A DNA stretch of 64,000 bases, taken from Escherichia coli (GTDB taxonomy: Bacteria; Pseudomonadota; Gammaproteobacteria; Enterobacterales; Enterobacteriaceae). The position numbers and the translations under genes were made by a program. The stretch is taken from the NCBI RefSeq assembly GCF_048403405.1, contig NZ_CP183129.1; one strand, 5' to 3'. The number at the start of each line of letters is the position of its first letter. Within the stretch, counting starts at the first letter, position 1. Positions 62,432 to 64,000 of this stretch are shown here, piece after piece. The notes under the pieces are model-generated. The model was not told the origin of the DNA. It saw only the letters and a list, made by a program, of their open reading frames with translations, and searched no databases.

Positions 62432-63828
62432 ATCAGCTCCTTTGCACGGAAATAATGCCACAGTCACAACAAACCTGAACCCACTATAATTTATTTATGC
62501 TAAATCAATGGGTTGTAACAAAATTTTTAATGAATATAAAACCATGGTCAGTCCATGCTTATATGCAGGACTTATCACCTTCTTATTAAGTCGCAATGTC
62601 TCATGGAGGTGCGAAGACGCTGCAATATTACAGGCGAGAAAGGGAACCAAATTTTGCCCACCTATTTAACACACTCCTACATTATGAACAAGGAATTTAG
62701 GATTTTTATCATTTATTAAAATGTTTCCTACTTGACTATTAATGCCAAAAACAATTTATCAATTGATTATTTCCTTGTAAAAAAAGAACGTATGACTATG
62801 TTATTAATAAATAAAACACGCAAATAATGGTGATGTTGTTTTGTGATTAATTATTTAAGTGATTCATAATAAACAGGTTGACAATTTCTATGTAAAGAAG
62901 AGGAAAATAATAAAATTTTAGCGGTGACTATTGAGTGATATGATAGTTGTGGTGTTGATTATTTCTGGTAATGAATGCGGAATTAAATCTGGCCGGATTG
63001 TATTTTTGCTATATCTATTTTTCAGGAGATTATTATTAAATAGAAAAATAACAATGGTGATTATCTCCGGTTGAGCTGGAGTCACGTATGCCAGCGAGTG
63101 CTTTCTTCCGGGCCTTCCTTCACTTCAGAGAAAGAGCCTATGGAAAAGAGGCAATCATCAGGCTCTTTTTGAGTCATATGCGCCGATAATCAACTGTCTT
63201 GAACGTAAAAATTATGGAGCAACATGATGCTACGATTCATTTCACTCTTCGTTCTTTCTGAGCATTGCGTTCAGGATGGTCAGCAATTTACGCATACAGT
63301 CAACCAGCGCCACTTTTTTGGTTTTTCCGGGTGCTGGCAGATGCATGTAAAACGCCTCTTTCACCGGATTAAACCAGGTTACCACAAGCGCTGCCATGTG
63401 CAGGGCTGCTCTTGCCTCCGTACGCGCACTGGCGTCGTTCGGCCAGCAGATATGTGTGGGATAACAGGGATGTTATGTGAACTGAACTGTGTTTTGCTAG
63501 CGGGGGATGTTTATTGATGATTCGGGAGTGTTTAAGACCTGATGGCGTTATGCACCCAAGTTTATTTTATATAAAGATCCAAAAGCAAAAACCCGCCTTG
63601 TGGGCGGGTTCTTAAGAATTAGTGGTGCCCGGAATCGGAATGAAACTGATTGTATAACAAATTGTTTTATATAGATTATTTTGTATTTGTTGTTTTTGAG
63701 GCCACCAATGAGGCCCCCATGTGCAATTCGAATTCTTTTGACGCTATAATCCCTCTTTTTTGTGCTTTGCTGTAATCATTTGGTCTGGTTCGATATGCTG
63801 AATTGTGGAATCGTACTTAACGCGTTTG

Positions 63829-64000
63829 TTAGCTGGTCAGAACACTTAGCGCTGTTTGTCTGAAACTGGAATAGGCTTCTTCCCAGTTAATCTGTGTATT
63901 ACCAAATACCATCGGTTTAACAAATCGTTGAAAGCGCAATTTGTGTACAGGATAATCCCGGAGTGCATCCAGCCCTTTCTTAAGTTCATCAACTGGTGAG
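63829..64000 (-). CDS. C-terminal end of an unidentified protein running off the window
   Basis: Reverse-strand frame open from the window edge to a stop at complement of 63829-63831 (...KPMVFGNTQINWEEAYSSFRQTALSVLTS*); product not recognised. Confidence 0.3.
   Translation of the reverse strand, partial: SPVDELKKGLDALRDYPVHKLRFQRFVKPMVFGNTQINWEEAYSSFRQTALSVLTS

Follow-up and report, generated by a model that had tools for sequence, protein, structure and literature searches.

The window analysed here is a stretch of 64,000 nucleotides from an Escherichia coli chromosome, and the part of interest is the seam of 0.8 kb that follows kpsF at its right-hand end (63224-64000). Along the minus strand, the one on which pheV runs, this seam would read as the cargo and right arm of an island, the attR repeat, 48 nt of ancestral chromosome, and the flank of the kps segment, after which come the PR1 promoter region and kpsF. 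An earlier note on this DNA had found nothing recognisable here. Every piece of 63224-64000 except a spacer of 150 bp now has a clear identity, including three features that the note had missed, namely the minus-strand remnant of an IS110 transposase gene, a 24-nt fragment of pheV, and a second, overlapping minus-strand reading frame.

The last 10,001 bp of the window differ from CFT073 (NC_004431) by a single mismatch, and the sequence past position 64000 was therefore read from that genome; statements about it rest on the near-identity over the overlap and not on the window itself. When 63000-64000 was searched by megablast in a set of 5,426 complete E. coli genomes, CFT073, ATCC 25922, and other ExPEC strains matched at 100%. 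At least 80% of the query is covered in 677 of the genomes, and some part of it is matched in 4,512.

The abiE genes and the right arm of the island

The outermost feature is the C-terminal part of a nucleotidyltransferase toxin gene of the AbiEii/AbiGii family (63829..64000, minus strand), which was recognised through PGAP and PADLOC and continues past the window. The last ~57 codons of a reverse-strand gene had already been reported at this place, and correctly so, as the minus-strand frame at 63829..63999 comprises 56 codons and a stop (63829-63831) and runs open to the window end. A second, overlapping minus-strand frame at 63846..63992 arises from a frameshift just outside the window, and the label given by PGAP in CFT073 is 'nucleotidyl transferase AbiEii/AbiGii toxin family protein, frameshifted'. 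The PADLOC AbiEii profile PDLC02297 matches the C-terminal frame in the window at positions 241-306 of 307 (E = 6e-19) and the 305-aa ORF upstream of it in CFT073 at positions 1-247 of 307 (E = 2.5e-97). The upstream ORF is also matched by Pfam PF08843 (AbiEii; E = 4.3e-27), and the nucleotidyltransferase domain is thus found by both PF08843 and PDLC02297. Since positions 241-306 of the profile are matched, the frame at 63829-63999 can be taken as the authentic ancestral C-terminus of the toxin. The 56-aa C-terminal peptide is too short for Pfam, which returned nothing for it, and a protein search with the 70-aa C-terminal frame gave only five short unnamed fragments; the identification was made via PADLOC and the extended gene.

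Aligned with its counterpart in WP7-S18-ESBL-09, the abiEii gene of CFT073 lacks 13 bp at a point corresponding to window position ~64033, some 33 bp outside the window, and the deletion divides it between two reading frames. In ABU83972 and ST131 a 14-bp deletion is found in the same place, and in WP7-S18-ESBL-09 a TGG codon, 18 codons short of the end, has become the nonsense codon TAG. For CFT073, ST131, and ABU83972, whose frames are interrupted, the PGAP label is 'frameshifted'. Upstream, a 131-aa DUF6088/AbiEi_4 protein, the antitoxin, overlaps the start of the toxin and matches the PADLOC AbiEi profile PDLC02229 (E = 4e-52). Antitoxin followed by toxin with overlapping stop and start, as well as strong profile matches for both components, are also found in the AbiE type IV toxin-antitoxin and abortive infection systems (PF08843, PF13338, PADLOC), whereas the toxin of the present locus is broken by the 13-bp deletion and those of its relatives by the 14-bp deletion or the nonsense codon. 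Further upstream in CFT073 lie genes for DUF4942, DUF957, DUF5983 (yeeW), cbtA, yeeU, DUF987, a JAB/RadC protein, an antirestriction protein, and DUF932. This set, with its yeeW/cbtA/yeeU/yeeT/yeeS module, is what CP4-like E. coli islands typically have as their distal module. Extension of the sequence and homology searches, which the earlier note had proposed as a check, therefore led in CFT073 into island cargo and not into an ordinary core gene.

To judge from these reading frames, abiEii is a pseudogene in this lineage and the last cargo gene of the island, and the AbiE system is most likely a decayed one with a surviving intact antitoxin. The last cargo operon of the ~105-kb island would accordingly consist of the abiEi antitoxin gene followed by the abiEii toxin pseudogene. 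Inactivation of abiEii in at least three independent ways suggests a rapid turnover. We tentatively consider, from a handful of surveyed cases, that the interval from the DUF4942 3' end to the attR arm (63814 to ~1.4 kb beyond the window) might be a slot of pheV and pheU islands into which toxin-antitoxin or defence genes are swapped, an idea that is more doubtful than probable. Defence hotspots have been described in P4-like satellites, and the proposed cargo slot would be comparable to them.

The right-end arm of the island (attR arm) is an AT-rich stretch of 167 nt at 63647..63813 that was delimited by its conservation. It contains the tandem 11-mer TGAGGCC(A/C)CCA at 63697-63719, which was sought in the attL arm and is absent there. 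Several hundred further E. coli genomes carry the attR arm, about 90% conserved, beside cargo other than AbiEii. In the pheU island of B25FEP-TDT a parDE pair stands between the same arm and the same DUF4942 gene, and at the pheU locus of this strain the right arm, the core, and the integrase-side arm are contiguous, forming an attP-like or tandem junction. APEC O2:K1, whose island has a different arm, carries an EAL-domain gene in the equivalent place.

The pheV fragment and the limits of the island

The arm is followed by the truncated 3' end of pheV, GTTTCATTCCGATTCCGGGCACCA (63623..63646, minus strand), which was recognised by its match to the pheV 3' end and is the candidate attR direct repeat. 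It agrees with the last 24 nt of pheV in 21 of 24 bases, the final 11 nt being exact, and is thus an imperfect repeat with three mismatches in 24 nt. The pheV 3'-end pattern matches once in the 64-kb window and not at all in 100 shuffles. It was by such pattern matching that the stump was located; ARAGORN, which found no full tRNA in the whole window, is blind to it since only a stump is present. In strains with different islands the sequence similarity breaks inside this fragment, and APEC O2:K1 and H1827/12, which have other islands, keep the common sequence as far as the tRNA fragment and into it, and past that point they diverge completely.

The other end of the island is found in CFT073, where the intact target tRNA gene pheV (3,406,225-3,406,300) is followed by an adjacent gene for a tyrosine-type recombinase (3,406,498-3,407,763). 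A repeat scan in which up to five mismatches were allowed, over the interval 3,403,500-3,520,523 of CFT073 which takes in the island, the seam, and kps region 1 as far as kpsD, gave only two copies of the pheV 3' end, pheV itself and the distal fragment at 3,510,877-3,510,900. These stand in direct orientation, 104.6 kb apart. The cargo between them comprises hly, pap, iha, sat, iuc/iutA, a sialic-acid catabolism cluster, agn43, and the yee module, and the island has been heavily rearranged by IS elements. At the mismatch nearest the end, the attL copy has the chromosomal G and the attR copy in CFT073 the variant T, and the crossover is therefore likely to have fallen within TCCGGGCACCA.

Such an architecture is ordinary for uropathogenic E. 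coli and has been published (PMC10272209). Arredondo-Alonso et al. (2023) described that a PAI downstream of kpsF leaves a truncated pheV, reported 22-bp direct repeats and a P4-like integrase, intB, at the pheV PAI, and found genomes with an intact pheV and no PAI (PMC10272209). The present locus resembles PAI-CFT073-pheV and the PAI V-type islands in its site, speC-yqgA-pheV to kpsF (PMC10272209; PMC7545054; PMC7686366), for which speC and kpsF/gspM have also been taken as the flanks (PMC7686366). As in these islands, the truncated pheV adjoins kpsF, the integrase gene adjoins the intact pheV, and the content in CFT073 is the same (hly, pap, iha, sat, iuc, agn43, and the yee module), with no difference of substance; the repeat is imperfect here (21/24; 19 nt with one mismatch) compared to the '22 bp' given for CC95.

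Across the kps region, homology to K-12 ends at the stop codon of yghD (gspM) at 44056 and restarts exactly at 63575, so that a kps segment of 19.5 kb (44057-63574) stands in place of 101 bp of K-12 sequence. The boundary of this segment at 63574|63575 is separated by 48 nt from the CCA end of pheV. Comparison of the two ends of this segment (44057-44556 and 63075-63574) gave only chance matches of 8-10 nt and no flanking repeats.

The earlier note had suspected that a capsule-bearing island might end here, and the seam could indeed be the outer edge of one mobile island with kps inside the att-bounded element. An att-type repeat is present in the region, and the pheV-yghD interval including the K2 capsule genes has been catalogued as a single PAI-CFT073-pheV of 123 kb (3406498..3529292) (PMC7545054). 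However, the order along the pheV strand is island, truncated pheV, original terminator, and kps, which places kps on the chromosomal side of attR. The 64-kb window, which covers kps, the boundary on the yghD side, and some 44 kb beyond, contains no second pheV repeat, and the kps segment is without flanking repeats. Furthermore, a synthetic query for the empty site, composed of the kps flank, the terminator, the full pheV, and the yqgA side, aligned end-to-end at 99% in 210 complete E. coli genomes. In these 210 genomes yqgA, an intact pheV, the terminator, the IS110 remnant, and kpsF are contiguous with no island between them, which represents the unoccupied site (attB); in ST2747, for example, the annotated order is kpsE, kpsF, IS110 remnant, tRNA-Phe, yqgA, and speC. 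In the published work the capsule was acquired before the PAI, and at least 14 excisions of the PAI that left kps behind were deduced in CC95, with circular products cited (PMC10272209). The single mobile island is thereby already largely refuted, and we regard it as highly improbable. What stands of the suspicion is the boundary itself, which is the edge of a neighbouring island with kps outside it. Only by the older naming, under which the whole pheV-yghD interval is PAI-CFT073-pheV (PMC7545054), can it be called the edge of a capsule island, and then in a loose sense.

Because the truncated pheV is followed by its original terminator and then by the kps flank, the arrangement of the sequence places the kps segment (44057-63574) outside the repeat-bounded island, on the chromosomal side of attR. 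The genomes with an empty site and the divergence of strains at attR both argue for an island that is a separate element beside a pre-existing kps segment.

The hairpin and the kps flank

The 48 nt between the pheV fragment and the kps segment (63575..63622, minus strand) are identical in 48 of 48 positions to the K-12 DNA directly after the CCA end of pheV (b2967) and thus represent ancestral chromosome 3' of pheV with its intrinsic terminator. A GC-rich hairpin had been noticed earlier at about 63590-63612, and it is present, with aacccgccttgtgggcgggtt at 63590-63610 as the core stem and an extended form at about 63586-63614, the arms of which lie at 63587-63597 and 63603-63613. A terminator scan places it on the minus strand with a 12-bp stem that has six GC pairs, followed by the T-run TTTTTGCTTTT; on the transcribed (minus) strand this is a GC-rich stem-loop with a U-run directly after it, as in rho-independent terminators. 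In a context of 76 nt the hairpin folds at -22.8 kcal/mol (z = -2.76). Two terminator-like sites were found in the scan against 1.4 expected, so that the hairpin alone is not beyond chance, and it is the base-for-base identity to the pheV terminator of K-12 that identifies it as a real terminator. Its orientation with respect to the tRNA 3' end is that of K-12, but the tRNA that precedes it in the window is only a stump of 24 nt. In CFT073 the functional pheV, at the far end of the island, is served by a different hairpin (GGACCTCCACGGAGGTCC), which the island supplies.

The hairpin and the tRNA-like fragment might alternatively be a functional regulatory RNA or a cis-element of the kps region 1 promoter, and not scars, given that both are found upstream of kpsF, on the strand of kps transcription, and that the hairpin is stable. 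The start sites mapped for the promoter PR1, however, begin 225 bp upstream of kpsF and extend downstream from there, which leaves more than 900 bp between them and the hairpin (PMC5738388), and K-12, a strain without kps, has a pheV terminator that agrees with the hairpin in every base. A permissive Rfam scan of 62400-64000 returned only weak, terminator-like look-alikes (P9, rnk leader, Trp leader), all below the gathering thresholds, and a known RNA family was rejected on these grounds. A regulatory role is therefore most improbable, even slightly more so than the single mobile island. As the PR1 start sites are far away, the seam lies outside the characterised kps promoter (PMC5738388). 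As an ancestral pheV terminator, the hairpin would now be an orphan separated from its tRNA, and from its position and orientation it would probably keep transcripts of abiEi/abiEii from running on into the kps regulatory region.

The part of the kps flank closest to kpsF is the 3' remnant of an IS110-family transposase gene together with the right end of the element (63191..63424, minus strand), as found by PGAP, blastn, and profile searches. It codes for only the last ~61 codons of the transposase, with the stop at 63242, and the identical sequence of CFT073 is annotated by PGAP (63242-63424, minus strand) as 'IS110 family transposase, incomplete, missing N-terminus'. In a sensitive blastn search, 63191-63411 aligns at 87% DNA identity with an E. 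coli 'IS110 family RNA-guided transposase', at the 3' end of the latter, and of the two limits of this homology 63191 is the right end of the element and 63411 the other. The encoded protein is 72% identical over 61 aa to the intact E. coli relative (E = 2e-26). It matches NCBIfam NF033542 at profile positions 282-342 of 343 (E = 1.7e-8) with a score of 34 bits, well below the cut-off of 140, and Pfam PF02371 at E = 0.13. A complete IS110 transposase needs an N-terminal DEDD catalytic domain and a C-terminal Transposase_20 domain, which the remnant does not provide, and upstream of 63424 nothing aligns to the intact relative, so that the left end of the element was not found.

The IS110 family includes the bridge-RNA recombinase IS621, and IS110-group elements encode a guide RNA in their 5' non-coding end. 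The remnant resembles them over the terminal 61 codons and some 50 bp at the right end, whereas only the 3' ~230 bp are left and the catalytic N-terminal domain and the 5' non-coding end are gone. As both of these are absent, the remnant must be inert and cannot be mobile. It was also considered, and rejected, as the source of the kps promoter, the mapped PR1 start sites being more than 500 bp off (PMC5738388).

The plus strand over the remnant has a 97-aa ORF with an ATG start (63224..63517), known from the ORF listing, which the earlier note rightly called doubtful. It is the antisense of the IS110 remnant plus part of the spacer and is spurious; the only recognisable homology under it sits on the opposite strand. 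That it really encodes a small protein belonging to the kps flank, as its uninterrupted ATG-initiated frame and its conservation with the flank in many genomes could indicate, can be dismissed as the least likely of the alternatives, since it has no match in a Pfam search and no annotation in any genome inspected, the complementary IS110 homology over 63242-63424 accounts for the open antisense frame, and the rest of the ORF enters the spacer, with recent common descent of the flank as the explanation for its conservation.

The 150-bp spacer (63425..63574) forms the outermost part of the kps-associated segment, to which it was assigned by co-inheritance. At least 80% of 63100-63580 is covered in 1614 genomes, and the spacer is always inherited together with the kps flank. 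It has stops in all six frames. A search for paralogues in E. coli genomes and plasmids gave no independent copy, the sole match in the plasmid collection being a K. oxytoca 'plasmid' record that itself holds E. coli kps DNA.

Assembly of the locus

We estimate at about 0.93 the probability that the 0.8 kb past kpsF are a three-layer seam downstream of pheV in an ExPEC (CFT073/ST73-like) chromosome, the product of successive horizontal transfers. The seam would then consist of recombination scars, i.e., attR, an orphaned terminator, an IS stump, and a decayed toxin gene, with 63623-63646 as the attR end of a tRNA-integrated island of the tyrosine-integrase type.

The kps segment probably came first, or at least independently, and its flank would comprise the 150-bp spacer and the 3' stump of an IS110 element, followed by the AT-rich PR1 promoter region and kpsF. 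The island would have integrated into pheV later, when a P4-like tyrosine integrase recombined the attP of the island with the pheV 3' end by a crossover inside the shared TCCGGGCACCA, leaving the truncated pheV as attR. The integrase gene at pheV and attR presumably form an excisable pair, and the island could be lost again by recombination between attL and attR, leaving pheV-terminator-kps. The predicted attB junction after excision is pheV-CCA-ctaattcttaag...-IS110 remnant, and the predicted circular attP junction is island right arm-core-aattcatataaacgg.

For the annotation of this region, the spurious ORF can be removed and the AbiE toxin flagged as a pseudogene, and the exact junction coordinates are possible markers for the presence or absence of the island. 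The catalogued PAI-CFT073-pheV of 123 kb lumps two units that appear to have been acquired independently, an excisable, att-bounded island of 104.6 kb and a non-mobile kps segment of 19.5 kb. This two-unit structure would explain how ExPEC lineages lose or swap the island and yet keep their capsule.

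Boundaries of the kps segment and its IS110 remnant

The kps segment, which runs from the kpsM side through the IS110 stump (window 44057-63574), stands in place of exactly 101 bp that in K-12 lead from the stop codon of yghD/gspM to the pheV terminator. Neither direct nor inverted repeats were found at its flanks, and the segment holds no integrase. The stump, a 3' remnant of an IS110-family transposase gene (63191-63424, reverse strand), is separated from the mapped PR1 promoters by an extremely AT-rich stretch (62700-63100; GC 23-34%) with strongly positive GC skew, for which the ORF listing contained none of note. 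In another strain, the nearest intact-length relative of the stump adjoins a 'zinc ribbon protein / inovirus Gp2 / Hha' module (DNA extract L004, 2120-3490). Since this module is also present within the pheV island of CFT073 (extract L013, 22468-24719), elements of this IS lineage appear to be frequent in such islands.

The spacer with the IS110 remnant was also found (97.7% identical), along with E. coli kps region 1 and a yee-type island end, in a 29-kb circular record deposited as Klebsiella oxytoca 'plasmid 4' (NZ_LR890315.1; extract L014). The E. coli kps DNA in this record is probably due to contamination or misassembly, while an excised circle is conceivable.

The attR arm and a related junction at pheU

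The conserved right-end arm of the island (attR arm, 63647-63813) contains a tandem 11-mer, TGAGGCCACCA a TGAGGCCCCCA, at 63697-63719, which may be a protein-binding site and is absent from the attL arm beside the integrase. Near cadC in strain B25FEP-TDT (NZ_CM177970.1; extract L011, 2880-3010), the right arm of the island, the pheV/U core and the arm of the integrase side (aattcatataaacggacctcc...) form one continuous stretch that adjoins a truncated integrase; this junction at the pheU site is attP-like or of the tandem-island type.

Toxin decay and variable cargo at the island terminus

The toxin gene abiEii, the C-terminal end of which lies at 63829-64000 on the reverse strand, is inactivated by lesions that differ by lineage among CFT073, ABU83972, ST131 and WP7-S18-ESBL-09, and the sequence of the antitoxin AbiEi is intact throughout. 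The lesion is a 13-bp deletion in CFT073 (extract L001, ~10034, corresponding to window ~64033) and a 14-bp deletion in ABU83972 and ST131. In WP7-S18-ESBL-09 a nonsense mutation turns TGG into TAG, despite which its AbiEii is annotated as intact.

A comparison of CFT073, ST131, B25FEP-TDT and APEC O2:K1 indicates that the cargo between the 3' end of the DUF4942 gene and the conserved attR arm varies among islands. It consists of abiEi/abiEii in CFT073 (window 63814-64000 and beyond; L001, 9815-11242), as in ST131, and of parDE, between the same flanks, in the pheU island of B25FEP-TDT (L011, 3116-3891). In APEC O2:K1, where the arm differs, an EAL-domain gene is found (extract L006, ~4541-6337). 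The interval from the DUF4942 gene to the attR arm may thus be a slot in which toxin-antitoxin or defence genes are swapped.
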